Source: a virus. Taken from it: a stretch of 64,000 nt of DNA. The stretch spans positions 1-64,000 of IMG/VR virus record IMGVR_UViG_3300047510_002037; one strand, written 5' to 3'. Shown in pieces: positions 1 through 61,100 of the stretch (position 1 is the stretch's first letter; the number at the start of each line of letters is the position of its first letter). The notes beneath the pieces were generated by a model, which saw nothing but the letters and a program-made list of their open reading frames with translations, made no database searches and was not told where the DNA came from. The position numbers and the translations under genes are program-made.

Positions 1-449
1 TCTTTATTATAATCATAATTTTGTTCACCAAAATACATTTCATCCTTATAGCTCATCATAGTTTTCTTATGAACTTTCTCTAATGATGAAATTATTCCTC
101 TTAAATCTCGAATAGTATAGATAATCTTTATGTCTGGGAATAGATTAAATAGAAAATCTAATTCATGAGACCAGCTTCTGCATTTATCAATGTAAATATC
201 CGTATCGCAAATAGTATCAATCCAAGAATTAACACCCGATCTACAAAAATTTTTAATTAAATCATAAGAAGTTTCAGCGTCATATTGAGATTCACGAACA
301 GCATCAGTGAATTGATTTTGTGCTGATTGAACTATCGATCCCAATATGGAATCTGGAGATATAGTAACATGTGGATTTTGATTTAATACATTCACTAATA
401 AAGTGGACCCCGTTCTAGGAAGTCCACACATACAAACAAATTTTCTCAT
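1..449 (-). CDS. Sulfotransferase family protein (partial, runs off window start; not in ORF track)
   Basis: ATG at 449 overlaps the gp46 stop (ATGA). Manual translation MRKFVCMCGLPRTGSTLLVNVLNQNP...KIIYTIRDLRGIISS shows the PAPS-binding GxPRxGST and RDxRxxxxS motifs. Confidence 0.8.
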   Translation of the reverse strand, partial: MRKFVCMCGLPRTGSTLLVNVLNQNPHVTISPDSILGSIVQSAQNQFTDAVRESQYDAETSYDLIKNFCRSGVNSWIDTICDTDIYIDKCRSWSHELDFLFNLFPDIKIIYTIRDLRGIISSLEKVHKKTMMSYKDEMYFGEQNYDYNK

Positions 450-15859: not shown

Positions 15860-16090
15860 CTACCAATCAGGATATTCCCACATATATCCTAAATTAGATG
15901 TCTTTCTTTTTCTCAAAACTCTGTTTATTGTACAATCTTTACATTCGTAGGAAAATGATGATGCAACTGCTCCTCTATCTTTGCGTGTTCTATAGAAACA
16001 GTCTATAAGGTTTTTTATTTCTCCACATACCCTGCATTCTCTATCGTATAATAAAAGATGTCCAAACTTTACCTGATTATCTAAGTCCAT
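15860..16090 (-). CDS. Small zinc-finger protein (CxxC...CxxC)
   Basis: CRVC and CKDC pairs; likely start at ATG 16090 overlapping the gp17 stop (TAATG). Confidence 0.7.
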   Translation of the reverse strand: MDLDNQVKFGHLLLYDRECRVCGEIKNLIDCFYRTRKDRGAVASSFSYECKDCTINRVLRKRKTSNLGYMWEYPDW

Positions 16091-17736
16091 TATTTGTACT
16101 CCCACATATAAGACATATCTCCATATTCATCCGTAAACCATCTATCTCCACTAGAATCAACAAAACTCTCAGAATCTAACCCATCAACTATAAAACCAAA
16201 TGGAGACATATCTTGCTCTATCTGATTTTTTTGTTCTTCATACAAACGCTTTCTGATATCTTGATCTGTAAGTTCCTTAAAATACTCTTGTGCAACTAAC
16301 CAAGCATAGATGACTAGACACATCGCTAAGTCATCATTACAACCCTCTTCTGCTTCAAATGAATTATGCTTTGAAATGAAAGTCGTAAGTTCTGATATTA
16401 TTTCATAATCTTTAAAGAGTAACTTATCACTCTCAATCATTGCTTTAAGATTTAAAGCACCGACTTTTTTTACAGTTTTGGACATCTTTACTCCAAGTTG
16501 AGTCTTCTTCCCAGAGAAACCTTGTCCTACAATCTGCCCAGCACGCCCTCTCATAGAGCACATTAGTACATTTTGATACTCTAGATCGTAATGTAATAAT
16601 GACGCTACCTGATCGCCTATATCATTGACCTCACAGAGAATATACGCACTATTATAATTCTTTGCAACTTCCCAAATTATATTTGGGAATAACATAGGTT
16701 TAATTTCATTATTCCTGTATTTTGCTACAATTCTATGAGGAAATTGTGTTATATCTACAACTACAAATGCGGAGTAATCTTCACTAACTCCTCTAGCGAC
16801 ATCCACTGTAATTATATAATCGTGGTTTTCTATTACTGGTTCGTATACATCCAATCCCGCACTTTTTTTGATTGGATCTTCGTAAACAAAACTTTTTAAT
16901 TTACTTGGTGAAATAAGAGTATCGACGGATCCTAAAAATTCACACTCAAATTCGATTTTGAATTGTTGATCGGATGTGTTTGCAATGGTTTGTTTTTTCC
17001 ATTCCTCATCTCTTCCAGGAACTTCCGACCAATGAACATCAGTTGGTACATATTCATTTTTACCTTTTTCTGCATCATGCCACATTCGGTAGAAATGATT
17101 CATACCATGTGGAGTTGATACGATAATTACTTTCGTGTTTTTACCGGAAGTAATAGTAGGATAAACAGATGCAAAGAAGGAATCTGCGATATGGTTTGGA
17201 ACGAAAGCGAACTCATCGAGAAAGAGGATATTGAACGACATGCCTCGGACAGCACTTGCAGACGTAGAAGCAGCCAGAATCTTTGATCCATTTTCTAGTT
17301 CAATGTTTCCTTTATTCCATGCTATTATACCCTGTTGCATCCATTTTGGTAAGTTTTCGTAGGCAGTTGCTAACCTACTTAACAATTCTCTAGCAGTTGC
17401 CGCTTTGTTAGCAAGAATACCAATATTTACACTATCGTTGAAAATAAGATAATGTAAAAGATACGAAACAACAGTGGTAGATTTACCAGTCTGCCTAGGC
17501 ATTTTGCAGATGTTAAATCTATTTTTGTGGAAATTGTTGATTAATTTTTCTTGGAAATGATATGGCTCAAACTGTGTTAACCCCTCATCAAGGCTTACAA
17601 TCTTTACATAATTTTTAGCAAAATATACCGGATCTTCCTGACATTTTACGAACTCAAGAATTTGATCTTGAGTAAATTCAATTTGAGTATTTGCCTTCTT
17701 TAAATTTGGATTACCAAGATATACACTATCAGTCAT
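16090..17736 (-). CDS. gp17: Terminase large subunit
   Basis: YLGNPNLK, PRQTGKST, FLDEFAF, STPHG, NDDLAM; no intein. Confidence 0.97.
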   Translation of the reverse strand: MTDSVYLGNPNLKKANTQIEFTQDQILEFVKCQEDPVYFAKNYVKIVSLDEGLTQFEPYHFQEKLINNFHKNRFNICKMPRQTGKSTTVVSYLLHYLIFNDSVNIGILANKAATARELLSRLATAYENLPKWMQQGIIAWNKGNIELENGSKILAASTSASAVRGMSFNILFLDEFAFVPNHIADSFFASVYPTITSGKNTKVIIVSTPHGMNHFYRMWHDAEKGKNEYVPTDVHWSEVPGRDEEWKKQTIANTSDQQFKIEFECEFLGSVDTLISPSKLKSFVYEDPIKKSAGLDVYEPVIENHDYIITVDVARGVSEDYSAFVVVDITQFPHRIVAKYRNNEIKPMLFPNIIWEVAKNYNSAYILCEVNDIGDQVASLLHYDLEYQNVLMCSMRGRAGQIVGQGFSGKKTQLGVKMSKTVKKVGALNLKAMIESDKLLFKDYEIISELTTFISKHNSFEAEEGCNDDLAMCLVIYAWLVAQEYFKELTDQDIRKRLYEEQKNQIEQDMSPFGFIVDGLDSESFVDSSGDRWFTDEYGDMSYMWEYK

Positions 17737-22913: not shown

Positions 22914-23252
22914 TTAGAAGTTGGATGTTTCAAGAATACTGACTAAGAATTTCAAGTCAGTTCCATTGCTACCAGATATTGAAATTTTATCCCCAGTTTC
23001 TAACACCAATTTACCTGGAAGAAGATTTACTGTATCTCCCGATGGAACAGGAAATGCCGTAACGATAGGAGTTGATGTTGCGCCTCTTTTATAATAAAAA
23101 GTAATCGTATGCGTTGTTGCTCCAGTATTTACGCATTGAGCTAATAAGAATACTGAAGTATATCCTGTTGGTGCAGTATATAGTTCTGTTTCAGATGTTG
23201 GAACTGTTTGTGTTACAGTTCTAAAATTATTAATTGCAATTTGTGCAGCCAT
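22914..23252 (-). CDS. Small virion-type beta protein
   Basis: LYTAPTG...KLVLETGDKI pattern; coupled to the upstream large gene. Confidence 0.7.
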   Translation of the reverse strand: MAAQIAINNFRTVTQTVPTSETELYTAPTGYTSVFLLAQCVNTGATTHTITFYYKRGATSTPIVTAFPVPSGDTVNLLPGKLVLETGDKISISGSNGTDLKFLVSILETSNF

Positions 23253-23256
23253 TTAA

Positions 23257-26200
23257 TTAATCTCCTAGTGCTAGAATGAATGGGGTTACATTATTAAATA
23301 AACTCTTCAGATATGCTCTACCAGAAACTGTTCCACTCGCTTGGTTAATAACAACGCCATCACCAATTCGGAAGTTTCCTGCTTGATCAGTGCTAGTATA
23401 TGTAGCCTCTCCACCATCTTCCTTAACAACCTCATTTTCTTGTATAGGAACTCCACCAACAGCAGGTCTTGCTGTAAAGATATTTGTTCCAGCACCAATG
23501 TATTCAAACGAGATTGTGGTTGCGATTTGTAGACTTTGGCGAGCCAAATAGACTGTATCTCCAATTGATACATTATTATTTAAACCTTGAACTGAAGTTA
23601 TAGTTGTGATTCCCGCATTTGGGAAAGTTGCAGCAGAAATCTTATAGTATAGTGGGTCAATCTTACTAACAACTGCAGAACCTGCGGATCCACCACCAGA
23701 CAATGGGGCAGAAACTGTTATAGAAGGTTCTGTTTCATATTGAGTTCCAGAGTTAATTAAAGTAATGTCTGTGATTCTTCCATCCAAAACTGTTGGAATT
23801 GCTTGTGCAGTAATTCCGTTAGGTCCGGTTGGAGCATCAATAGTTATATCGACATCGTTAGCGTTTTGGTATCCAGAACCACCATTGGTTACAGTAATTG
23901 AATTTAGTGAATAGTATAGTTTTCCAATATAGAAAACCTCACCATCATATGGTCTGTATGTACCAACACCACTTACAGTCAATTCAATATCACCAATAGA
24001 ACCAGCTATAGCAACGTTAGCACTCTTTCTATAAATTGATTTAGAATCAACTCCACTAATACCTCTAGATACTAGACCTTTATTTCCAAAAGAGGCATTA
24101 GAGTTTGTTAGGTCGCATTGTCCACCAGACTGAGTTACAATTGCTTCATTGCAGCAAATAGTAAAGATAGAAACTAACTGTGCATATGCTCCATTTGAAA
24201 TAGAAACTCCAATACCATTTTGATTATATTGAGTATATGAGTCAACACTCATCGATCCCTGTACACCAATATCATCTTCATCTCCTGGTTCTGCTGGGAA
24301 TCCATCAATTTTCATTCCAATACTATCTGGAATAAAGTTTGTGCAGTTTCTAATATATGGCCCTTTGAAAATTTGACCAGTTCCTGGTGAGAACGATGGA
24401 TCGTTCTCAATTTCACTACCAGCTCCGTTATTTCCTGGATAAGTTGTTTTTATTCCAGTTGGATTTTGTGCGGATCTAAAGACTGTTAAACCAGATCCAA
24501 CGATTGTAGTTACAATTCCAATGCATGACCTCATAGCAGAAACTACATTATAACATCCAGCTGGACTTTGGTTAGTTCCAACTAGTGGATCAATTTGAAT
24601 ACCAAGATCTTTTACTTGAGTATTGAATGTTTGGAATGGTCTAAACTTAAGGATTGATCCCCCACCATAGTATGTGTGTTGTATTTCAGTTCCACCGAGA
24701 GTAACTTCGAAGGTATTAACCCCAACAATTCTTTCTACTGGGAATATTTGTCCATGTGTATTATCTGGGAAAATAGTGGTTGTGATACCAGAATTTACTG
24801 TACCGCCACCAACATAAGTGTGATCTAATGTTGATATACCGACATTTACAGTAAATCTTCCTGATGTGAATAGTTGTGGATATGAATTTAGATTACCGTT
24901 AGTAACAGAAGTTGTTAATATTGAAATTAGATTATCAATGTTGGATTTAACATTAGCACAAGAATTTGGACTTGTATTAAATCCAGTTAGTGGATCTGCT
25001 GTAATTGTTAGATCCTTAAAGTTTAATTGATTTGTAATTGCTAGTTTTGAATAATCTCTAATAGAATTGAATGCAGTAACTGATGGTGCTTCCTCTCCGA
25101 TTAATCCATTTGTTAATGGATCTCCATTAGCATCAAAATACGCTCTTGTCGCTTCTCTAATATACTTGTTGGTTCCAAATCTAAGATCTTTTATAAGAGC
25201 ATCGACAACATATGCAATATCCCTTCTGCACTTACTTTCACCACTTAAGAATAAACCATAATTTATTTTAATAGCATTCAGGGTTAGTAAGTTCCCAGAA
25301 CCAATTGGTTCGGTGATAATAGATGTTAATGTATCTAGAGTTGACTGAACATCTGAACAAGCAATTGAACTTGTATTTGCTACGGAAATATTACCATCAC
25401 CATATACTGATGATCCGATGGAAACTCCAGTATCTTTTATTGTAAGTTGATTGGTTATTGCAGACTTCATCAAATCTCTTGCTGCTTGGAATGCTTCAAT
25501 CGAAGCTGATTCCTCTCCAACCAGTCCATTTGATATTGGAGCACCAGATCCATCAAAATACTGTTTAATAAATTCTATTGAATATCTATTCCCTCCAGTG
25601 AATATATCTGTAGAAACAGCATCTACAAAATATCCAAGATCTCTCTTGCATTTTGTTTCAGTTAAAATAACACCAGAGTTTGCTGGATTAGCAATCATAG
25701 TATCCCAAGCAGAAGTTACTATTTCTGCTTTATTTTGTTGGATGAGTCTATAAGCATCCTTATATCTTGAATATTGTGTTGTCTGATTATCATCTGGAAA
25801 ATAGAAATCAGAATGGGCAATCGCAATAGATGCTAAAGATTTATCAATAATTTCCAACCTATTACCAGATATTAAATTAGCAGCATCTGCGTATCTGTGA
25901 TCAATTGCTGTTGAAAGTATTGTAAAATCATATCCAAGATTACCACTTGGATATAATGCAGTGGATGGACCTCCTCCACTATTGCATTCAAATACTAAAT
26001 TCTCTAGTCTAACTTTTTCGCCTGGCTCTGCATAAAAACCTATAGCAGTTGTGGATGCAATACCAACAACTCTAATTGTTGATATACCAGTAATTCTGTC
26101 GTATGTTGCAGTAGAAACTCCAAACGTTGGAGTATATAATCTAGTTACCGTTCCCCCTCCAACATAACTATGGGAAATAGTTGATGGTCCAACATTAACA

Positions 26201-28308
26201 TTAAAACTCGTTCCAGAAAGAACATCTGATACGGTAAAATCATATCCAAGATTACCGCTTGGATATAATGCGGTGGATGGACCTCCACCAGAATCGCATT
26301 CATAGACTAGATTTTGAAGTCTTACTCTATTTCCGACTTTAAAGTTATTATTTGCTGAGGTTTCTATAGTGGTAATACCACTTATATTATCATATGTTGC
26401 GCTGATAACATTTATTGGTGTTCCTGGGGAACCTTCTGGACACGTAAATGCAAATCCATCTAATTTTACAGAATCATATTTTTGAAGACCATGATTTGGG
26501 ACTGTAACTGTAGATAATCCTGTTTTTTGATCATATATTATGTTTGTTGCTGGTATAGTTAATCCAATGGAAACTCCACCCCATGTAGAATTATTAATAA
26601 CGTTTCTAGCAATATTGAAAGAATAATCCAGTGTTTTTATTGTCTGTTCTCTTTCCAGTGGATTTTTTAGAGTATTGAGTGCAAATTCTCCAGTACTCTC
26701 ATCAAAATATGTTTTACCAGCCGCAACACATTTAGAATTACCACCTCTAGTAATATCATAACAAACTGCTTTCCAAATATTTCTAATATCCCTAGAGCAC
26801 TTAAATGTATCTAAGTTTATTCCAGTAACTGTTACTATTCCCGCAGTAGATCCAGTTCCTACAGCTGTTGTAACAATACCAGCAAGATATGAAATACTAT
26901 TAGCAACACCTACACACCAACCAGTTCCTCTAACGAACTTATTCCCAGACTGATCATATTCAACTCTTGTTTGAATACGAGTCGGGTCAAATGCTTGAGT
27001 ATAAGTTGATTGATAATTTGTATATTTCTCAACAGTTCCGCCAGTACTGTATGTGTGCGGAATAGATGATATTCCAACGTAGACTTTGAATGTATTTACG
27101 CCAACATATTCTTCTACTTTAAAGAAGTATCCATACTTACCATCTGGGAAAGTATTAGTTGTAATACCAGAACCACCAGGACACGTAAACTTAACTCCAT
27201 TTAGTTTGATGATATCACCAGTTGTTACTCCATGTCCAACTGCAGTAACTGTTGATAATCCAGTTAGATTATCATAGATAAATCCAGTAATATTTGTTGT
27301 TGATCCAGATGCAACACTACCATATGGCTTATTATTGATTACGTATGTTGCAATACCTACGGCATAATTAATTGTATCAACTGTCGCCGTAGAAATTCCA
27401 TATCCGTTTATATCTACTCCCGTAATATGGAGTAAAGCCCCACCAGATGAAAAATATGAAAGTGCTGCTCCAACAGACTTTTCGTTACCTGTCGCTTTTA
27501 AATCATATGCAATGGATTTGAAAATATCTTTAATATCATCCCTACAATCTTGGTCTGTTGTTGGAACTTCAAATACGGGATTTTTATAATCAGTACTAGT
27601 CAGGAATCCAACAGCCTCACCAGCAATAAAATCTAAGTTTGCTTCTAACAATACAGCAGCATCTTGTGCTACGTGAGTTCCAGCATATCCGCTATATCCA
27701 CTTGTTAAGAATCCAACTGCTTCTCTAGCAATAAAATCTGAATTATATCTAATTAATCTAGCAGCATCAAAATATCTGTCTGGAGATACTCCTTCTAAAG
27801 GTCTAAAAGCAATAACAGCAGCACCTTCTGTAGCTGGAGGTCCAACAAAACTTAAGTCGGTAACGTGAACACCATCATTTACATGAAATAAATCTTTATT
27901 TGAATTTTGTGGTGTTACTAAACAGTTTCTTAATTCTAATCCCTCTACCGATACATTCTTTTTAAGAAGAATTGGGTTATTTTCAATATATTGTCCAGCA
28001 TAAACTTTAATAGTATCAAATGAATTTGCTATTGCTGCAGCAGCTTTAATAGATGCTTTTGCATCTCGTTCATTTAAACCACTATTAGCATCATTTCCAT
28101 TTTTAGTTACAAATATTGTTTTACCTAATGATCCACCAGCACCAACTGCAATAACTCTGGTAGCAATTCCAACTCCACCAGTGTCTTGCTTCAAGAAGAC
28201 TTGACCATCAAATGCATTAACAGCTAATTCACCAATTAGAAGTTGAGCATTTGTTGGAACTTTGCCTTCTACTGAAGATCTTTTTAACCTAATTATTGGA
28301 TCAGACAT
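23257..28308 (-). CDS. Large virion/fibre protein with pectin-lyase-like beta-helix frame and four phycobiliprotein-like helical domains
   Basis: N-terminal IRLKRS...GELAVNAFDG attachment module; FVTKNGNDANSG...ASIKAAA; repeated (K)CxRDI motifs. Confidence 0.8.
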   Translation of the reverse strand: MSDPIIRLKRSSVEGKVPTNAQLLIGELAVNAFDGQVFLKQDTGGVGIATRVIAVGAGGSLGKTIFVTKNGNDANSGLNERDAKASIKAAAAIANSFDTIKVYAGQYIENNPILLKKNVSVEGLELRNCLVTPQNSNKDLFHVNDGVHVTDLSFVGPPATEGAAVIAFRPLEGVSPDRYFDAARLIRYNSDFIAREAVGFLTSGYSGYAGTHVAQDAAVLLEANLDFIAGEAVGFLTSTDYKNPVFEVPTTDQDCRDDIKDIFKSIAYDLKATGNEKSVGAALSYFSSGGALLHITGVDINGYGISTATVDTINYAVGIATYVINNKPYGSVASGSTTNITGFIYDNLTGLSTVTAVGHGVTTGDIIKLNGVKFTCPGGSGITTNTFPDGKYGYFFKVEEYVGVNTFKVYVGISSIPHTYSTGGTVEKYTNYQSTYTQAFDPTRIQTRVEYDQSGNKFVRGTGWCVGVANSISYLAGIVTTAVGTGSTAGIVTVTGINLDTFKCSRDIRNIWKAVCYDITRGGNSKCVAAGKTYFDESTGEFALNTLKNPLEREQTIKTLDYSFNIARNVINNSTWGGVSIGLTIPATNIIYDQKTGLSTVTVPNHGLQKYDSVKLDGFAFTCPEGSPGTPINVISATYDNISGITTIETSANNNFKVGNRVRLQNLVYECDSGGGPSTALYPSGNLGYDFTVSDVLSGTSFNVNVGPSTISHSYVGGGTVTRLYTPTFGVSTATYDRITGISTIRVVGIASTTAIGFYAEPGEKVRLENLVFECNSGGGPSTALYPSGNLGYDFTILSTAIDHRYADAANLISGNRLEIIDKSLASIAIAHSDFYFPDDNQTTQYSRYKDAYRLIQQNKAEIVTSAWDTMIANPANSGVILTETKCKRDLGYFVDAVSTDIFTGGNRYSIEFIKQYFDGSGAPISNGLVGEESASIEAFQAARDLMKSAITNQLTIKDTGVSIGSSVYGDGNISVANTSSIACSDVQSTLDTLTSIITEPIGSGNLLTLNAIKINYGLFLSGESKCRRDIAYVVDALIKDLRFGTNKYIREATRAYFDANGDPLTNGLIGEEAPSVTAFNSIRDYSKLAITNQLNFKDLTITADPLTGFNTSPNSCANVKSNIDNLISILTTSVTNGNLNSYPQLFTSGRFTVNVGISTLDHTYVGGGTVNSGITTTIFPDNTHGQIFPVERIVGVNTFEVTLGGTEIQHTYYGGGSILKFRPFQTFNTQVKDLGIQIDPLVGTNQSPAGCYNVVSAMRSCIGIVTTIVGSGLTVFRSAQNPTGIKTTYPGNNGAGSEIENDPSFSPGTGQIFKGPYIRNCTNFIPDSIGMKIDGFPAEPGDEDDIGVQGSMSVDSYTQYNQNGIGVSISNGAYAQLVSIFTICCNEAIVTQSGGQCDLTNSNASFGNKGLVSRGISGVDSKSIYRKSANVAIAGSIGDIELTVSGVGTYRPYDGEVFYIGKLYYSLNSITVTNGGSGYQNANDVDITIDAPTGPNGITAQAIPTVLDGRITDITLINSGTQYETEPSITVSAPLSGGGSAGSAVVSKIDPLYYKISAATFPNAGITTITSVQGLNNNVSIGDTVYLARQSLQIATTISFEYIGAGTNIFTARPAVGGVPIQENEVVKEDGGEATYTSTDQAGNFRIGDGVVINQASGTVSGRAYLKSLFNNVTPFILALGD
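25922..26289. repeat. Near-identical ~55-bp direct repeat (about 25922-25977 and 26233-26289) encoding GGGPSTALYPSGNLGYDFT
   Basis: gtaaaatcatatccaagattacc(a/g)cttggatataatgc(a/g)gtggatggacctcc occurs twice. Confidence 0.85.
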
Positions 28309-28382: not shown

Positions 28383-31316
28383 TTAATATTCTCCGCCATC
28401 TATAGTAAGATTAACCAAGTTTCTAGTAGATCCAGTACATGAAAGAATTTCGGATGAACCAGCACAATCATTTACAGTAATATTTCCAATATCAATAGAA
28501 GCATACTGAGATACTGTGAGAACATTAGATGACTCAGTTACTGTTGATGCAATTGCTACTTTAGATCTAGAATCATCCCAGAAAATAGCTGCTTTTCTAG
28601 AAGAACCATTATAATAATTCATTAACAAACCAACATCAATATTACTATCACTTGTTGGTTCAATTAAATCATTTGCATTAAGCGGATCTATTGCTAAACC
28701 AATATTAACTAAGTTATCACGTATTTTTACAATATTAGATCTAATTACCGTATCGGACCCTTTTACTATTAAATCATTATTTACTGTTAAATCAGATCTA
28801 ATACCAACAGATCCAGAAACTGGTGTTAGAGTTATTGCCTCAACATTATCAGAAGCTTCTATTCCATTACCTTGGATGTTAACTTTGCCGGCAAAAATAG
28901 TTCTAACAGCATCTTCAAGGGTTATATTAATAGCATTATTGGAAGCTCTTATATTATCACCATTTATTCTAATATCATCTTCAAATTGAACATAATTTGA
29001 TCCTAGTGTAATATTAAGTTGATCGCCAGAATCTAATATTTGATTGCTTTCAATTCTTAATTGTCCAGTAATACTAGTTTTTGTATTGCTAGTCATGGTA
29101 ATGTTAACATTACCATCAGATGCTTTTATATCATTACCATTAACTCTAATATCCCCCGCAAATATAGTTTCATTACCACCTTGCATAGTAATATTGGTCG
29201 TTCCGCCACCAGCAAGAATATTTTGACCATCAACTTGGATATTTCCTGCGAATCTTGTATTGTTTGAACTGAATAAAGTAATGTTTACTTGACCATCACT
29301 TGCTTGTATATCATCACCTAATATTCTTACATCTCCTCCAAATAAAGTTAATGGACTAGCAATAGATGTTACACCTGTGGGACCACCAAGAACAATATCA
29401 AATGCTTGATCAAAAGCATAAACATTAGTTACGTTTTCTCTTGCTAAATTTAGCTCAGAGTTTTTAACATCAATGATTGTACCGTTTAATGATAAATTTC
29501 CAGATAATTCTGTTAATGTATTTCCAGTAATTGTTATATTTTCTAAACCATTAGCACCTTTTATTGCTGCAGTTGTACCATTTCCAACAAGTCTTATATT
29601 TCCACTAAATTCAGTTTGAGTCGATCTTATTGTTGTATAACCAACAGTGCTTCCCATTGAAACTGAAAGTGCATCACCAAAAGCTCTGATTGAAGTTACA
29701 TCATTGTTAAAAAGTTGCAAATCTTCAGTATTTGTTATAGCTCCTAAAGAAGAACCATCCATCAATATATCACCATCAACAGCTAAAGTATTCGCTATTG
29801 GGGAATAATATAAACCACTATCTACATGTAAAGTTCTTTCTGGTTGAGAAATTGAGGAGTTTGTGAATGTTAAGTAATAATTAGTTTCCGTGTTAGCCAC
29901 TGATACATCAACTGCTGTGGCTCTAATTGCGGTTGTTGCTGTTCCTTGTATATCATTTATAAATGCCGCTACTCCTGTGGTTAACTGGTTGAAAAAAGTT
30001 GAATTGGAAGTAGCAGCGATACCCAATTCAAATGTTCCTTGAGCACCGGTTACGTCTATTCCATTAGTAAATAGTGCCGTTCCTCCAACTGCTACAGTAC
30101 CCAAAACAGTCAGATTAACATCTACAGATAAAGTATCATATGTTCCATTTGCTGCTCTAACATTTTCCCAACGTAGAGATTCTGATCCCAAATCATATGT
30201 ATCAGATGCATTTGGGATCAATCCAGAAACTAAAGTAGCCTGGACATTTAATAAACTTGATGAATCCAATCCCAAAACAATACTATTTGTATATACCTCA
30301 ATTTCCGCTGCACTAATACCAACATTATCAAAGATATTTACAGTACCAAAGAAAGTCGAAGCTCCACCAACATTTAATTTTTTAGTTACCGACAGACCAC
30401 CCTCAGTTACAATAGAACCTTCAGTTAAACTATTTGAGTCTTCATCTCCAGTTACTAATAATCTATTTTGAAAGGTTGATATTCCAGCTACATTAATTCC
30501 TTTGTTGAAGTTTACTGATTCAAAAGTTGCTTCATCTGTTGCTATTATTAATGTTGAAGTTGAAGGTAATCTAAGTAAACTGCTAACAAATAATTCAGGA
30601 GTTCTTACCTGACGAACATTCATTAAGGAAGATATACCAACAGTTCCATTAACAACAAATAAACCAGTACTAGTATCTGTAGAAGCAGTAGATACTGAAT
30701 GTGTTGGATTTATTATTAAGTTATTGGAAATAGTAGTAATACCTGTTAATGTATTATTTCCATATAAAATGCTATCAGATAAATTTATAAATCCTCTATT
30801 TGTTCCTCGTACTGTAGCAGCTATTCCGCTGATACGTGAAGTTGAACCTATCGTAATTTGTCCTGGAAGAAATAATGATCCCTCCTCTGGATTTCCAGAG
30901 TCTGGTTGTAAAATTACAAAATTTCCTAGTCTGGTAGTACCATGAACATATGCACGATCATAAAACTCTGCTGGTCCGCCTATATACGCTTCTGCTTTAG
31001 CTGATATTTTTCCATCTAAAAGTAATCCACCACCTGCTAAACCTACACCACCCCCTTCCGTACCTACAATTTTTCCGGATATTATTACATCAGTTAATCC
31101 AGCAGCAACATGAACCTTTGATCCTGGTAAAGATGTTCCTATTCCAATATTGGGAGAATGGAAGTTATCGTTCCAAAGAGTAGCACCTATTGATATAACA
31201 CCATCGTATGGATCAATACCTGTAGGAATAGTAATCGCACCATTATCGATCAGTTCAAAGTCATCGATATGCAGATAGGATGCAAATTGAGATAATTCTC
31301 TATTATTCCTAGACAT
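28383..31316 (-). CDS. Fibre-like virion protein with ~29-aa repeats (FxGDIRxxGxDIxASDGxxNITL)
   Basis: Repeats in the C-terminal half; YDLGSESLRW motif; ends IDGGEY; late promoter at 31340-31346. Confidence 0.75.
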   Translation of the reverse strand: MSRNNRELSQFASYLHIDDFELIDNGAITIPTGIDPYDGVISIGATLWNDNFHSPNIGIGTSLPGSKVHVAAGLTDVIISGKIVGTEGGGVGLAGGGLLLDGKISAKAEAYIGGPAEFYDRAYVHGTTRLGNFVILQPDSGNPEEGSLFLPGQITIGSTSRISGIAATVRGTNRGFINLSDSILYGNNTLTGITTISNNLIINPTHSVSTASTDTSTGLFVVNGTVGISSLMNVRQVRTPELFVSSLLRLPSTSTLIIATDEATFESVNFNKGINVAGISTFQNRLLVTGDEDSNSLTEGSIVTEGGLSVTKKLNVGGASTFFGTVNIFDNVGISAAEIEVYTNSIVLGLDSSSLLNVQATLVSGLIPNASDTYDLGSESLRWENVRAANGTYDTLSVDVNLTVLGTVAVGGTALFTNGIDVTGAQGTFELGIAATSNSTFFNQLTTGVAAFINDIQGTATTAIRATAVDVSVANTETNYYLTFTNSSISQPERTLHVDSGLYYSPIANTLAVDGDILMDGSSLGAITNTEDLQLFNNDVTSIRAFGDALSVSMGSTVGYTTIRSTQTEFSGNIRLVGNGTTAAIKGANGLENITITGNTLTELSGNLSLNGTIIDVKNSELNLARENVTNVYAFDQAFDIVLGGPTGVTSIASPLTLFGGDVRILGDDIQASDGQVNITLFSSNNTRFAGNIQVDGQNILAGGGTTNITMQGGNETIFAGDIRVNGNDIKASDGNVNITMTSNTKTSITGQLRIESNQILDSGDQLNITLGSNYVQFEDDIRINGDNIRASNNAINITLEDAVRTIFAGKVNIQGNGIEASDNVEAITLTPVSGSVGIRSDLTVNNDLIVKGSDTVIRSNIVKIRDNLVNIGLAIDPLNANDLIEPTSDSNIDVGLLMNYYNGSSRKAAIFWDDSRSKVAIASTVTESSNVLTVSQYASIDIGNITVNDCAGSSEILSCTGSTRNLVNLTIDGGEY

Positions 31317-55103: not shown

Positions 55104-58100
55104 TTATGATAGGTAATTTATAGATTTTAGAGCATTAGTTCTTCTTACTATTGGGGAAGTTGAAATTCCCAATAATCCATTGTCTTTATATATTGAATAT
55201 TCTTCTGGATTTGGTCTAATTAAATTAGATACCTTACCCCAAGTATATTCTCCAAAAAATTCTCTTGATAAGAACTCATTAATTACTAATCCATTTAGAT
55301 CTTCTATAGGAGCAATAACTTTTATCCTATCAACAACTATTAAAGTTCCTTCTTCGGTAACAGTTACGGAAGAACCACTTCCTATAGCAAATGATGCATA
55401 TCTAGCAGTATCGGAAATTATCTCAGAAACATTTACTTGATATGGTTCAAGATCAATACCAGCAACTTGATATACATTATCAATGAATTGATTTCCTGTA
55501 ACCAATGCATTCCCACTAATATCTAAGGAAGTAACTCCAAAACCAATATTAGTTGAGTTGATTACAAAATAATCACCAATTTGAATAGTACTTTGATCAT
55601 ATATCTCACCAACAACACTAGCATCTCTAAGTGGAGAATTTTCATCAATGAATAATTCAAATACCAGTGCAGTTGATCCCACCCCTATAGATGTTGTACC
55701 AATTCCACTAATAAATCCAAAATCTCCAGAATATTCTACTTGATATGCAACTTCACTCTTAGATAGTGGTGGTGATATTAAAACTAATGGTGGATTATTA
55801 TCATCATATCCACTACCACCATCATTAATTGATATAAAATCGACCTTACCATCAACAATTACAGCTGTTGCCGAAGCGGTATTTATACCACTCTTTGGAG
55901 AATGTATTGATACTGTTGGTATGGTTGTATATCCAAATCCTTTATCTTGTATATTAATACTAGTAACTATTCCAGAAGTAACTGATGCTAAAGCATATGC
56001 AGATTTAGTATCATCTTGTGTTACTATATCTACAACATTAGTATATGTTTCTGGCGCATTTTCTTTTTTATCGTCAAAGAAAGTTTTTAAACTTTCTACA
56101 TAAACAAAAGTGCTACCAATACTTATATCAGAAATAATATTTGTAAATGGATTTATTTGAGCTTCATATAAGTCTCTTGATTTGGGAATAATTTGACCAT
56201 CTACGATAAGATCATTCTTTTGTCTACACCAGTTAACTGGTCTCTCTAAGAATGGATTCTGAATTATACCCTCTCCACCATATGGGAATGTCTCCACAGA
56301 ATCTGTAGCTGTAATATCTTTAACAGACCGTTCGGATTGATTTTCTTCAATGAAATCACTATGCAATCTTAATCTATCCCCAGGTTTTACTGTTTCTAGA
56401 ATATCTACATCCCTAACATCAATCGACCCCGTTCCTCTATAGAACAGTATCTTCGCAGTGTTTCCTGGTTTTGGTGGTTCTGGGAAACGTATAATACTTC
56501 CTCCCTTAAATATGTAACCAATTCCAGGAACTTGTAATATATCATTGATGAATACCAATAGAGTTGACTGAACATCAATCAGAGAACCAGTTTTTGATTT
56601 AATAGACTTTTGTATTCCATTGATTTTTATTGGGAATCTTGTTCTAAATCCATTAAATAGAGGACTTATATCATCCAAAACTGCAATATCACCTATTGTC
56701 CATCCAGTAAATTCGTCAGTATCTGTATCTGCTACAGTTACTTCAAAATTTTCAAAATTCTGTGTTGTTGGTAATGATAAAGTTGGATTTGAGTATGGAG
56801 ACTGTATCGTTGGTGCATATGCTGTTCCAAGTCCAATAATTGTAGTTATTATACCAACATAATTTCCTATGGTATACCAAACATCCGAGCAACAATTTTC
56901 GTCATATAATGAAGGACTGCATGATTCATCAAAATCAATGGATAAATCTTTAATCTGAGAAATAGATGATATACCAGATTGATATGATACTGGAACCGTT
57001 ACGTTGTTTATGATATATTGTGATATATTGGTAATATAATTATAACCTGCTATTGTTTCAGTCTTTTCACCATCAATATATGATGTACCACCAGCTCCGA
57101 TGTAGTATGCAAATCCAGCTTGAACGCTATAATAGTTACCACCAAAGGCTAAGTCATTTGAAATTGCATCTACAACATAACCAATATCTCTCTTACAAAT
57201 ACTTTCATCATAATCAGTGCTGGTCAAAATTCCTGGATAGGTATTTGTGATGAATCCTACCACTTCATTCTTAATAAATTCTTTGTTTACTGATAGTAGA
57301 TTTGCACCATCAAGTAATCTACCTCTATACTCTCTTGGTATACCAGTAGTTCCACCAACAGCAACTGTTAATATATTATTGATTTCATATCCAAAACCTG
57401 GATCTATTATTTCAAAATCAATAACACTAGAACCTTGTCCTACAACAACATTAACTCTAGCATTTTGACCCGTTGTTTTTCCAATTGAAGTTGTGGAATA
57501 TTCTAAATCAATATTTGAGTATGATAATGGGTCATCAAAGACGACTTCTGGTGGATTTGATGATGTGTATCCAGATCCTGGATTTGTAATTGCTACACTT
57601 ACAATTCTTCCATAACTTATTGACGCAATACCAATCTTATTATAACCATCAGAATAGTTAGTTGAAGTTCTTACTCCAACATTTACAGTTTGTATTCCAG
57701 AACGATAACCAGATCCAACATTGGTGATATAAATTGATTGAATAGTTCCCGAAGCAGATACAACAGCAGTACCAGCAGCTGCTACAAGAGTTTGATATCC
57801 AAATCCACCTACAGATCCAACTGCAGTAATTTTTCCGGATACTGGTAGTCCTGTTACTGAGATGTCCAAACCATCAGAATAAGAATTACCATCAAAATAA
57901 ATTGTAGTTGAATCATTTTCTTCACCAAGATAATAGTTTCCAGTAACACTAACCACACCGGTGCGTATAGGTGATTGGAATATATCTTTAACAGTAATCA
58001 GTGCATTACTTTGTTCTATTCCAGTTATATTTTCACCATCTACAGTCAATGTAAACGCTGTTGTTATTCCATTAAATTGATCTTGTATTCCATCAAAAAC

Positions 58101-61100
58101 ATAATTTCTTGAATATGGTTCTTCTGTCCCATCAACTATTCCAGATCTCATAAATGTTCTTCCGCTAAAAGTGGAATTTGTTGTAATTCCTGTCCAATCT
58201 CTAGAGTCTGGTCTATTTTCAGGAGATCCTAATGGATACTTACCATAAGGAGCCGATGCAAAGTTAATTACATTATCTACAATATTATAGTTTCCGACAA
58301 CTTTTATTATTAAATCACCGGCAGAATGATTTTGTAATGATGTTCCAAGCCATGGTCTATTAACGTATATTTGAGTGGAAGTTGTTCCATATCCAACTAT
58401 AGCAACTCTCATTAACTCATCATTTATTTTTATGAAATCGCCAGATTTGAAAAATTCTACGTTATTTGATACGTTAATAATATCATCTGTAGTAAGAATA
58501 TTGTACGCAAGGGTTGTTGTTGTTGCAGTAGATACAATTGGAGATTGTATCATATTGTCAATAGAGATTAATGCCTTTGCATTTTGCTTTTCGGCAGTAA
58601 TATAATGCTCAGAACCAAAACCAACAGAAGTTATTGTTAAAACTTCCGGTACTAACTTTAATGCATTTTGAGCAGAGGATGCAAATTTAACATTAAGATC
58701 AGTTTCTTTTACAATATAAAGATCTTCTGGTAATTTATCAGTCAATCCAATACCAGAAATAGTAGTAGTTGCTATTCCTATGGGCTCATTAAAGATCTCA
58801 TATGAATATTTTACTTTTTCTCCAGTAACAAAGAAATGTTGTGGAAGTTGTACTAAATTATTTGCAACGTCAATTATGTCTGAAGATTCTCCATTAAATT
58901 TCTTTTGGAATATTGGATTCCCTTTGTGGAATAACTCAAAAGATTTTCTAATTGCACTCTCAGTTCCTTCATATTCGCCATATCCAGTAGATACTCGTGC
59001 ATTATTCAAATCTATCTCATTATTCAAGTTAAATGTATCAACTATTCCTATAGTGTTTACATATACCCTAACCTCACAGTCTATTTCAGAATCTGCAGTG
59101 AAATAAATTTCTGTTGTAGATCCATTTAGAAAAGAAGTAATAATACCAATTTCACCATTAGTGGTTAATACTCCAAATTCAGAGTTATATGCTGAATTAT
59201 CATCAGATGCAACTACACATTCTGAAATTTGATATCTTTCATTAGTTAAGTCTTCAATACTTACAATTAAATATGCTCCATTATAATCATAGAATCCAGC
59301 ATCAAACTCCGCAATCTTAGTTGGTGAAGTGCTAGAAGTTGTAGATATACCAACATATTCGGAATTTAACTGAGAGGTGTTTAATGTTATTGATCCCTCT
59401 TCAATAAATCCTGATGCAGAGCTTGCTATAGACACTTGTAACGTGTTTACATCAGCATCTAACAATATATTTGGTATCAAATCGACTACTAAGTTTCCTG
59501 AACTTATATAAGCATTATATGTCCCAATACCCGAAACAGATTCTTCTGAGAATGATTCGGTTGTAATTTGACCATAATCTATAATCTCAACATTAGTTCC
59601 ATCATGAATAACAGTAATTTCGTCGAATTCAAATATATTTGACGAATCTTCAATCTGAACTAGAATTTTAGTTGCTCTGTAATCTAGAGGTATTGATGCT
59701 ATTGTTGTGGTTATACCTGCATTTAATGGAGTAAAAGTACTATTAACCTTAACAATATTACCAATCGAGGTGTTTCCTACTCCAGAAATGTAATCTTTAA
59801 CGTCATAACTTACAAAACTAAGATCATAATTATTAACTCTAAACTTGACTGGATAGAAAAGTAATCTAGCTTCATCGCCAAAAATATCAAAATCGAAAGA
59901 TCCTAATATTGGACCAGTTTCAACTCTACCATATTGGTTTATGTATGTTTGACCTCCATCATGAATAAAAGTAACAAGGTATACTTGTCTTTCTGAAGTA
60001 AATCTTTTATCCCTAGCGAAAATTAAGAACTTTCTTGATCTTATCTGTTCTAGTTTAAATGTTGTTACAACACTGTATGGATTTGGTCTTGGTCTATCAT
60101 TAAAATATTCACTAACATCATCAATTACTAATACTCTATTTCCAATAGATTCCTCATAATCCTGAAGATCTCTACTATTAAATATCATTCCATTAGATAT
60201 TAATTTTGCTCCGATTGTTTCTGTTTCATCAATAGCAATATCGAAATCATATACACAATCTAAATCTACTACTTCTGATATGAAAGCAATTGATAAGAAA
60301 TCGCCACTGTCTTGAGATGTTGATATTCCTGAGAAAGATAAATCAGAGGTTTCAATTACTAAATCACTAAACTTTTTAAATCCAGATAGATGGTTTAATG
60401 AATTAACAGTAGTGTCCCAATTTTGGAGTGGAATTCTTGATTTAATTGAATATGAGAAATTCTGATAATAATCTCCATCTTGAATTTTTTGGAAAGAATT
60501 ATTTAAAAATCCAGTTTCATCTTTCCATCCAGAGACTACAACAGAGGTTGCATCAACATTATATACCAGTTCATTGGTTGCTATCTCAGTAATTTCTGCA
60601 ACTGATCCACTCTTTGATCCTACAACACGTTCTCCTAGTAAATATGAATCTATAGTAGTAACTTTCAATAATTCATTAATTTTATCCCATCTAGAAACTC
60701 TTCCTACAACCTTACTCGTCAAACCAGTTATCTCTTCACCTTCAATAAAATCATTCTGCTTTATTGTTGCTGTAAAAATTGGAAAATGCTTTTCTAAAAC
60801 AACTATTCCACTGGAAGTTACCAAATCATATTGGCCTAAAATTTCATCACTAGAAACATAGTCTTGCATACTATAAGTTATAGTTGCATTTGAACCTCCA
60901 ATATTTGGATCAATACTCAGGATCTTGAATAAATTATAGTTAAATTCTGATGAATTAAATCCTCTACCCAAACTTCCTAAAGTACTTGTTTTACATCCTT
61001 CTATCAGGATGTTATCATTTACTTGGAATGGAAAATCATTTAAAGAGCTAAAACTAGTCCTAAAAGTAACCGTTACAATTTTAGTACTAAAGTTAAAAAC

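Follow-up and report, generated by a model that had tools for sequence, protein, structure and literature searches.

The alpha and beta subunits of the phycobiliproteins (PBPs; PF00502; CpcA/B, CpeA/B and ApcA/B) are free subunits of 160-180 aa with a globin-like order of helices. The same fold occurs within a large multidomain protein in ApcE, a cellular component of the phycobilisome, whose single, un-nested phycobiliprotein-like domain carries a large insertion in the loop that joins helices B and E and attaches its bilin without a lyase, at a cysteine located elsewhere than the one considered below. The BBAGs, or photoglobins, which we have compared by their published description, are PBP relatives with CXRD or CXQD motifs that are not antennae; CXRD is the bilin motif of the PBPs, and BBAGs bearing it bind bilins without lyases, with no function yet assigned to them (Rockwell et al. 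2023, PMC10151467). BBAGs are bacterial, occur as free-standing proteins or fused to B12 domains, and are clustered with bilin synthesis genes. On the viral side, the T4-type baseplate and fibre proteins of cyanomyoviruses (gp7-like giants and 'tail fiber-like' proteins) belong to the same PHROG families as the proteins described here, and their annotations are silent on helical domains. We found no description of PBP-like domains in phage particles in the literature, where our coverage of subscription journals was thin.

The window that we analysed is a stretch of 64,000 nt (positions 1 to 64,000 of IMG/VR virus record IMGVR_UViG_3300047510_002037), and its gene of interest, P0001, is listed with its parts in Table 1. 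P0001 matched the tail fibre families PHROG 17885 ('tail fiber protein', E 1e-264), 4527 and 5342, and also phrog_3442, and its gene neighbours encode tail fibre, terminase and sheath proteins. Judged from the genes alone, these matches and the location in a structural gene block identify P0001 as a predicted tail-fibre-like virion protein of a T4-like marine cyanomyovirus, in agreement with a preliminary description of this DNA that had called it a virion protein. The C-terminal part of P0001 was 44-60% identical to 'tail fiber' proteins of P-SSM2 and S-B3, and in P-SSM2 ORFs the equivalents of residues 6-170 continue directly into equivalents of residues 1314-1420. The array of about 1130 residues that lies between these parts in P0001 is an insertion in a conserved scaffold, which P-SSM2 possesses without the array. 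The position of the array on the same scaffold differs between phages.

The array contains four helical modules, which are true homologues of the PBPs and have a globin-like fold without the X and Y helices. This had been proposed from the order of motifs, and is borne out by profile matches, by AlphaFold and Foldseek, and by the presence of a Cys84-type motif at the homologous position. When a 42-sequence module profile was searched against the PDB, 149 sequences were matched and the best 60 of the 149 were all PBPs; the top match was CpcA (E 1e-7), with KCkRDigY of the modules aligned on KC84-x-R86-D87-IGYY. Alignment of 540 modules with 50 CpcA sequences by hhalign gave a probability of 95% (E 4e-8). 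Five homologous phage proteins scored 25-36 bits against PF00502, for which the cut-off is 22.2, and two many-repeat proteins scored 30-37 bits, with matches that extended to profile position 141 of 155. In the reverse search, the phage profile picked only PBP genes of 166-212 aa from whole cyanobacterial genomes. The sequence similarity, detectable only in helix B, the B-E loop and helix E (about 60 columns), includes the helix B motif DA..L..N...I and the helix E motif K-C-x-R-D-I-G-Y, which the modules share with PBP subunits.

The predicted structures extended this relationship to the full length of the domain. AlphaFold2 models had a pLDDT of 89.7 for module 4 and 85.5 for a nested model of 351 residues that also covers module 3. 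The best 50 Foldseek matches of the module 4 model were all phycobiliproteins, and with VIA this model matched phycoerythrin beta at Z 15.6; the outer domain of the nested model matched 7lix_B at Z 16.8, with 145 residues aligned across model positions 1..341, and PBPs were superposed on positions 46..208 for the inner domain. By both aligners PBPs came first (Z 15.6-16.8, 133-156 residues aligned, rmsd 2.0-3.1), whereas non-PBP globins reached Z 11.4 at most; photocobilin globin domains were among the fold matches at Z of about 10 (VIA). The best sequence match of the modules was to CpcA and their best structural matches were to phycoerythrin and phycocyanin beta chains, while the closest superposition for module 4 was with ApcE (4xxi_A; Z 14.1, rmsd 2.0). 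A search of the ESM Atlas gave no usable match. The X and Y helices were not found, as the PBP superpositions begin at chain residues 25-33, and the inner modules have no sequence ahead of helix A/B. One helix of an outer module does overlay the position of the Y helix in some superpositions (model 22..208 on chain 7..177). Since the X and Y helices are missing, the modules lack the alpha-beta pairing surface, and because in addition the domains are embedded in virion proteins of 1,100-7,900 aa, their assembly into (alpha-beta)3 discs in the phycobilisome is unlikely. The modules also differ from the PBPs in their own near-invariant residues, D901, N907 and Y917, none of which is a PBP residue, and in a B-E loop that is about 9 residues shorter than in the PBPs, where this loop helps to enclose the bilin. 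In the modules the loop doubles as an insertion site for other domains.

The four modules are nested, not arranged in tandem. A BLASTP comparison of whole P0001 with itself returns only the identity alignment, and internal repeats were obtained from tiled searches: residues 255-353 matched 504-600 (E 7e-17), 870-959 matched 1009-1099 (E 5e-26), 495-538 matched 878-921 (E 3e-6) and 402-488 matched 1195-1275 (E 6e-11). This repetition is far beyond chance. HMMs for individual parts of the module gave the order NNEHENNEHEHH (N N E H E N N E H E H H), from which the array is resolved as four globin domains derived from phycobiliproteins, with intervening beta-domains. The B-E loop of module 1 holds module 2 and that of module 3 holds module 4, while the module 3/4 pair, together with beta-domains, occupies the G-H loop of module 1. 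In module 2 the G-H loop carries a beta-rich insertion, which is repeated at residues 587-627, 650-723, 736-797 and 1152-1234. The helix pair that opens module 3 corresponds to helices 7-36 of the 351-residue model and lies inside the phycobiliprotein superposition of the outer domain. Neither the nesting nor the insertion into a scaffold had figured in the preliminary description.

Table 1. Positions in the window of the P0001 gene, its parts in order from the N terminus, and a related module
Feature	Residues	Coordinates	Strand	Basis
Tail-fibre-like virion protein gene (P0001; predicted)	1683 aa	23257..28308	-	ORF list and translation
Scaffold N-terminal domain	1-171	27796..28308	-	Matches P-SSM2 ORFs
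Module 1 (outermost), N-terminal helix pair, RYFDAARLI...	177-208	27685..27780	-	N-only profile positions 8-39, E 5e-7; N-part HMM E 5e-5
Module 2, helices N to G, C255	210-336	27301..27681	-	Profile positions 6-119, E 2e-30; part HMMs N at 215, E at 253
Beta-rich insertion in module 2 G-H loop	~340-460	26929..27291	-	Matches phrog_1276
Module 2, last helix, WCVGV, C465	465-486	26851..26916	-	H-part HMM E 0.003
Module 1, helices E to G, C504 in K-C-S-R-D	498-596	26521..26817	-	Profile positions 42-129, E 2e-23
Beta-domain repeats in module 1 G-H loop	~600-800	25909..26511	-	634-693 ~ 731-797, E 5e-22
Module 3, N-terminal helix pair, RYADAANLI...	801-839	25792..25908	-	N-only profile E 1e-5
Module 4 (innermost, contiguous), C887	840-1010	25279..25791	-	AlphaFold2, Foldseek, VIA
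Module 3, helices E to H, C1027	1009-1142	24883..25284	-	Profile positions 28-163, E 2e-49
Beta-domain preceding module 1 closing helix	~1150-1230	24619..24861	-	1173-1234 ~ 380-441, E 8e-16
Module 1, closing helix, GCYNV, C1252	1231-1275	24484..24618	-	H-only profile positions 117-161, E 7e-6; H-part HMM E 5e-6
Scaffold C-terminal part	1300-1683	23257..24411	-	P-SSM2 and S-B3 fibre proteins; PHROG 17885 positions 628-1002
Fifth module of the same family, in a neighbouring giant ORF		56823..57332	-	Profile match E 4e-48; module HMM E 5e-41

The giant ORF that carries the fifth module is 4225 aa long and continues past the edge of the window. A search of viral contigs for relatives of P0140 found none.

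Each of the four P0001 domains retains the bilin-attachment motif of helix E, with equivalents of Cys84, Arg86 and Asp87. The preliminary description had located its motifs by the first base of each Cys codon, and all of them were present: DCRDDIKD in module 2 (C255, codon 27544-27546), KCSRDIRN..AVCYDITRGGN in module 1 (C504, 26797-26799), KCKRDLGYFVDAVSTDIFTGGN in module 4 (C887 in K-C-K-R-D, 25648-25650) and KCRRDIAYVVDAL in module 3 (C1027 in K-C-R-R-D, 25228-25230). The C-x-R-D arrangement is canonical at C504, C887 and C1027; in module 2 it reads C-R-D-D, so that the Asp87 equivalent is retained and the Arg is displaced by one position. A second Cys-bearing helix, also reported to occur four times, was found as WCVGV (C465), ACSDV (C984, codon 25357-25359), SCANV (C1117, 24958-24960) and GCYNV (C1252, 24553-24555), the last of these slightly beyond the range 24900-27800 first given for the repeats. 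The phycocyanin strings that had been given for comparison were correct, since in a Thermosynechococcus cpcBA locus CpcA has the Cys84-site string and CpcB contains RLDAVNRITSNAS and GDCSAL. The second Cys of each domain lies, as had been suggested, at the N-cap position of the last helix, which in the PBPs is the site of beta-Cys153/155; the C-terminal half of the modules could not be aligned to CpcB by hhalign, and the equivalence with beta-155 is thus one of topology. The RYxDAAxLIxxN helices, thought at first to precede two of the modules, exist as four N-terminal helix pairs (residues 178, 215, 804 and 847), which the nesting of the domains brings together as two tandem pairs.

The module was restricted to cyanophages among 50,697 phage records and, unlike the PBPs, did not turn up in the 301 cyanobacterial genomes that were sampled. 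The number of copies per protein ranged from 1 to 34, the context of the metagenomic proteins with 20-34 repeats being inferred from their PHROG and Pfam content only. In S-PM2, P-HM2, Syn9 and others, the proteins that bear modules are annotated as gp7 baseplate wedge, tail fiber, short tail fiber or virion structural protein. The arrangement seen for BBAGs was not encountered, as the modules are internal to fibre proteins. For conservation we used 540 contiguous modules, no two of which share 70% identity or more (mean 27%). The first Cys was present in 98% of these modules and C-x-R-D in 506 of 540 (94%), whereas the second Cys was present in only 22% and no further conserved Cys column was found. 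An obligate disulfide between the two cysteines of a module, an outcome that the preliminary description had named as counting against its proposal, is rejected on this conservation, and such a bond is unlikely as a general rule. Among the modules that lack the first Cys, Asp was retained in 7 of 13 as against 526 of the 527 that have the Cys (p 4e-10), and Arg in 8 of 13 as against 507 of 527 (p 1e-4), while the fold-specific residues D896, D901 and N907 were unaffected by loss of the Cys. Since Arg and Asp are lost together with Cys and the fold residues stay, the three residues behave as a separable functional site.

Our preferred reading, to which we assign somewhat less than an even chance (about 0.45), is that binding of pigment accounts for the persistence of the motif, each domain still attaching a linear tetrapyrrole at its Cys. 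The bilin, made by the host or by the phage, would be loaded in the infected cell, either autocatalytically, as in ApcE and the BBAGs, or with the aid of CpeT, a phage homologue of the T-type lyases. A finished particle would then have tens to hundreds of bilins on its baseplate and fibres. One step further, the nested array would serve both as a rigid extension of the fibre and as the element that responds to light in those cyanomyoviruses whose light-dependent adsorption is unexplained. Of 15 genomes with modules, 12 also had CpeT, which was in none of the 4 without modules (one-sided Fisher p 0.009), an association that is phylogenetically clustered on a gp17 tree, with few independent contrasts, and that is circumstantial as support for bilin attachment. 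Genes for CpeT, bilin reductase (FDBR) and HO were not found in the 84.7-kb record, which is a fragment, about 40% complete, in which their absence is uninformative. We found no reports of pigmented cyanophage particles in the literature.

The strongest competitor, which we regard as a serious if tentative possibility, is that a captured phycobiliprotein gene supplied a compact brick of helices that was multiplied and nested to make long and stiff extensions of fibre or baseplate and that carries no pigment, C-x-R-D surviving by its role in holding the fold or an interface together. Much of the architecture is consistent with such a use: the wide range of copy number, the balanced nested orders of the parts, an array that behaves as a cassette at different sites of one scaffold which also exists without it, and a B-E loop that is shortened and used for insertion. 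Two further observations point in this direction: similarity to PBPs is confined to some 60 columns, and bilin reductase genes did not track the modules across 19 genomes. Against it, a lone Cys in 98% of copies at 27% identity is unusual for a packing residue, Arg and Asp vanish with the Cys while fold residues remain, and it is precisely by these three residues that PBPs and BBAGs hold their bilin.

We consider it rather improbable that the Cys serves some other chemistry, such as an inter-subunit disulfide or other cross-link by which the fibre would be hardened in sea water, a redox switch, or, in combination with the Asp/Asn/Tyr cluster, a site for a metal or other ligand. The extracellular location of P0001 would suit these roles, as would the invariant polar residues around the motif (D896, D901, N907, Y917 and E932) and the conservation of both Cys positions in P0001 and its close relatives. 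However, with the second Cys in so few of the non-redundant modules the first has no general partner within the domain, and no other Cys column could provide one; in PBP beta chains, the cysteines at these two positions each have a bilin of their own, the two being about 35 Å apart. A chance or convergent likeness of an unrelated helical repeat to the phycobiliproteins, which might be suspected from P0001 alone, where no Pfam families were found and ApcD5 was matched at no better than E 0.21, is scarcely credible in view of the profile-level E values of 1e-7 to 4e-8, the homologous proteins that exceed the Pfam gathering cut-off, and a full-length fold that is closer to the PBPs (Z 15-17) than to any other globin.

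Two puzzles of cyanophage biology are of long standing. Some cyanomyoviruses adsorb only in light: S-PM2, P-HM1 and P-HM2 do so by a mechanism independent of host photosynthesis, whereas P-SSM2 and P-SSP7 adsorb in the dark (PMC6628666). We observed 6-13 profile matches in each of the first three phages and none in the other two, a comparison of five phages of which two are near-identical, and we treat the agreement as circumstantial support for bilin attachment. The second puzzle is the restriction to myoviruses of a phycobiliprotein-lyase homologue and bilin synthesis genes (PMC10452541), which they possess even when the host is nearly without a phycobilisome. In the boldest reading, covalently bound bilins on the nested domains of baseplate and fibre proteins would be the photoreceptor that gates adsorption by light, and CpeT would load the virion and not the host antenna; from the sequences we judge this further step unlikely. 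A pigment-protein fold with an intact attachment site on what is probably the adsorption apparatus of these viruses makes both puzzles accessible at the bench, and, with four nested copies of the host's fold that retain the attachment residues, pigment carriage and light sensing by virions can now be tested. Should pigment be bound, this would be the first photoreceptive virus particle; should none be bound, a host light-harvesting gene would have been turned into a self-nesting structural brick, which is still striking, and the family of bilin-binding globins would gain a new branch. The nested architecture is itself of interest for protein design.

We observed that the fibre protein, when searched alone against Pfam, matched no family, and that its sole sequence match in the PDB was ApcD5 (E 0.21), located exactly at the KCKRD helix. 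A precomputed match to Pfam profile PF00502 occurs in most of 120 homologues among the matches listed; it was verified in 5 homologues (25-36 bits, cut-off 22.2, profile positions 26-110 of 155), and 2 many-repeat proteins scored 30-37 bits on the same profile, with matches that reached position 141. The profile A1, built from 42 module sequences of the window and of IMG/VR loci, matched 149 distinct PDB sequences, of which the best 60 are all phycobiliproteins, with CpcA (6y3d) at the top (E 1e-7). When A1 is aligned with CpcA, module helix 1 falls on helix B, and K-C-x-R-D-I-G-Y on K83-C84-x-R86-D87-I-G-Y. An hhalign comparison of 540 non-redundant, contiguous modules (<70% identity, mean pairwise identity 27%) with 50 CpcA sequences gave a probability of 95% (E 4e-8, 60 columns aligned), and with CpcB E 5e-4. 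Conversely, a search of 3 whole cyanobacterial genomes with the phage profile found only ORFs of 166-212 aa, which are phycobiliprotein genes (E 5e-7 to 1e-3). By the PDB profile matches, the PF00502 matches of homologues and hhalign, the homology to phycobiliproteins claimed in the preliminary description is established at the computational level.

The fold was examined for module 4, the innermost and contiguous one (residues 840-1010), and structure prediction followed by Foldseek returned phycobiliproteins first. The model, made from A1, contains 6 helices (pLDDT 89.7, pTM 0.88), and its best 50 Foldseek matches are all phycobiliproteins (TM 0.54-0.63, probability 1.00). A structure search against representatives likewise placed phycobiliproteins in the first 8 entries; among them are phycoerythrin beta (Z 15.6 over 143 aligned residues) and, both at Z 14.1, far-red allophycocyanin and the ApcE bilin domain (rmsd 2.0), ahead of other globin-like sensors (Z <=11.4). 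Superpositions start at chain residues 25-33, and therefore the X and Y helices are missing from the module, as had been proposed from the motif order.

Tiled self-comparison of the fibre protein aligned residues 255-353 with 504-600 (E 7e-17), 870-959 with 1009-1099 (E 5e-26) and 495-538 with 878-921 (E 3e-6); as judged from these alignments, the helical modules are homologous to one another. The beta-rich segments between them are likewise repeated. The beta-rich domain, of ~60-90 aa and present in 4 to 5 copies, has a motif resembling L-x-F-x-C-x-x-G-G-G...Y-P-S-G and matches phrog_1276.

Each module was divided into an N-terminal pair of helices (N), a core of helices E to G (E) and a last helix (H); HMMs built separately for these parts found them in the order N178, N215, E253, H465, E502, N804, N847, E884, H981, E1024, H1113, H1248, which is a balanced bracket word that resolves into 4 modules. 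A profile search of the whole record recovered the same N-only and H-only fragments, and a model of residues 796-1146 (pLDDT 85.5) superposes on phycobiliproteins in 2 ways: an outer domain over model residues 1..341, with only 134-145 residues aligned (7lix_B, Z 16.8; 2uul_D, Z 16.1, rmsd 2.2), and an inner domain over model residues 46..208 (Z about 16). By part order and model, the 4 modules are nested, not tandem. The part HMMs showed this grammar in relatives too, with <=10 N parts in succession, and plain tandem arrays in some other relatives. A second architecture of plain tandem N E N E ... with 20-34 modules occurs in the metagenomic proteins P0126, P0128, P0129, P0130, P0135 and P0142; in these the marine-type H model does not detect the last helix, and a second Cys is lacking.

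Features of the fibre locus and its surroundings (part numbers are residues of the fibre protein)
Feature	Location	Strand	Remarks
Fibre protein gene	23257..28308	minus	ORF of 1683 aa
Module 1	N178 + E502 + H1248		outermost
Module 2	N215 + E253 + H465		inside B-E loop of module 1
Module 3	N804 + E1024 + H1113		with beta-domains, inside G-H loop of module 1
Module 4	N847 + E884 + H981		inside B-E loop of module 3
Beta-rich domains	26929-27291, 25909-26511, 24619-24861		between helical modules
112-aa ORF	22914-23252	minus	just downstream of fibre gene; free-standing phrog_1276 copy
977-aa ORF	28383-31316	minus	directly upstream of fibre gene; no PHROG match at E <=1e-8
Terminase	16090-17736	minus	86% identical to terminase of S-SM2 (NC_015279)
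Giant ORF	55104-64000	minus	neighbouring; 4225 aa in full record, extends beyond window
Further module	56823-57332		same family as modules 1-4, in giant ORF

All the motifs listed in the preliminary description are found in the fibre protein; its 4 positions (27546, 26799, 25650 and 25230) are the first bases of the codons for C255, C504, C887 and C1027, and its 4 second-Cys helices carry C465, C984, C1117 and C1252. Over 2366 module instances in 264 proteins, the C887 column is 99% Cys, and R889 (96%), D890 (99%), D901 (98%), N907 (87%) and Y917 (99%) are also conserved. Among the 540 non-redundant modules, 98% keep the first Cys and 506 keep the C-x-R-D triad. A structural disulfide between the 2 Cys residues had been named as a finding that would tell against bilin attachment; both positions are conserved in the fibre protein and its close relatives, and the second Cys is present in just 22% of the 540, so that an obligate disulfide is unlikely. 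The 13 modules without the first Cys keep Asp in 7 cases (vs 526/527, p 4e-10) and Arg in 8 (vs 507/527, p 1e-4), and D896, D901 and N907 are unaffected. Asp and Arg thus tend to go with Cys while the other positions stay, and the triad behaves as one separable functional site. The conserved attachment motif is established at the computational level. CXRD is the phycobiliprotein bilin motif, and bilin biosynthesis-associated globins that bear it bind bilins without lyases (Rockwell et al., PMC10151467).

Pigment binding by the modules is the best single explanation of this conservation pattern, and we would give it a probability of roughly 0.45. A purely structural role of the modules is a serious competitor, to which we assign a somewhat lower standing.

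The virion-fibre context that had been proposed is likewise established at the computational level: the protein matches the tail-fibre families PHROG 17885 (E 1e-264), 4527 and 5342 as well as phrog_3442, and adjoining ORFs match tail fibre, virion structural, large terminase and tail sheath proteins. Nearly all long ORFs of the window (G+C 30-42%) lie on the minus strand. The source virus, represented by a contig of 84.7 kb (estimated completeness about 40%), is a T4-like marine cyanomyovirus, and is the sister of S-SM2 in the gp17 (terminase) tree (support 100/99). Stretches of the fibre gene DNA match tail-fibre genes in P-SSM2 and in the Synechococcus phages B3 and B23. Comparison with 2 P-SSM2 loci (NC_006883 214886-216718 and 16338-17960) and one of S-B3 (MN695334 206714-211186) showed that in a 617-aa P-SSM2 protein the equivalents of residues 6-170 join directly to those of 1314-1420 and 1449-1682, with the same join in a 1128-aa P-SSM2 protein, and that S-B3 has the same scaffold with its module array placed elsewhere, behind the counterpart of residue 1420. 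Residues about 175-1300 are therefore an insertion in a conserved fibre scaffold of ~600 aa. What is new for this locus is that the modules are nested and that their array is a cassette, and our literature search found no publication describing phycobiliprotein-like domains in cyanophage fibre proteins.

Module 4 matched 635 cluster representatives at E <=0.001, and the 150 listed are for the most part very long, a single protein holding as many as 34 copies. By tblastn, matches were present in 312/50,697 phage records, all from Synechococcus, Prochlorococcus, cyano- or marine phages, in genes annotated as tail protein, short tail fiber, baseplate wedge or virion structural protein; a divergent many-repeat protein used as query gave the same distribution. 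Modules lie in putative fibre gp101 of Syn9 (6076 aa); S-PM2 has them in its tail fibre protein p091 and in another open frame, 3792 aa long, and P-HM2 in gp7 and a tail fibre protein. None of 301 sampled cyanobacterial genomes had a module match at E <=1e-8; the best match per module-bearing phage genome was E 1e-24 to 1e-71. S-SM2 has no module match at all, and since sister phages differ in this way, arrays are gained or lost between close relatives.

We scored 19 complete genomes for modules, the T-type bilin lyase homologue CpeT (PF06206) and bilin reductase (PF05996). Modules were found in 15 (S-PM2, P-HM1, P-HM2, P-SSM4, P-RSM4, P-SSM7, S-SM1, S-ShM2, S-SSM5, Syn1, Syn19, Syn33, S-RSM4, S-B3 and Syn9) and not in P-SSM2, S-SM2, S-SSM7 and podovirus P-SSP7; P-SSM2 was negative also by a broad HMM without filters. 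CpeT is present in 12/15 module-positive vs 0/4 module-negative genomes (one-sided Fisher p = 35/3876 = 0.009), a comparison with few independent contrasts because CpeT is restricted to 2 clades of the gp17 tree. Bilin reductase does not follow module presence. According to a review, HO, PcyA, PebS and CpeT are essentially confined to myoviruses among phages (PMC10452541).

Liu et al. (PMC6628666) report that P-HM1, P-HM2 and S-PM2 need light for adsorption, and that darkness does not prevent it in P-SSM2 and P-SSP7; the light dependence is independent of host photosynthesis and was ascribed to host receptors and/or tail fibres. The first 3 have 6-13 profile matches each and the other 2 have none, a parallel that is suggestive but comes from a sample of 5 phages. 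Light-gated adsorption through the modules goes one step further than pigment binding, and we regard it as unlikely.

The terminase match of S-ShM2 (NC_015281 108585-110220) is split by in-frame stops, one TAA and one TAG, and that of S-B3 (MN695334 153663-156242) lies in 2 pieces in a 900-aa frame; a frameshift or an inserted element, for example an intein or intron, may account for this.
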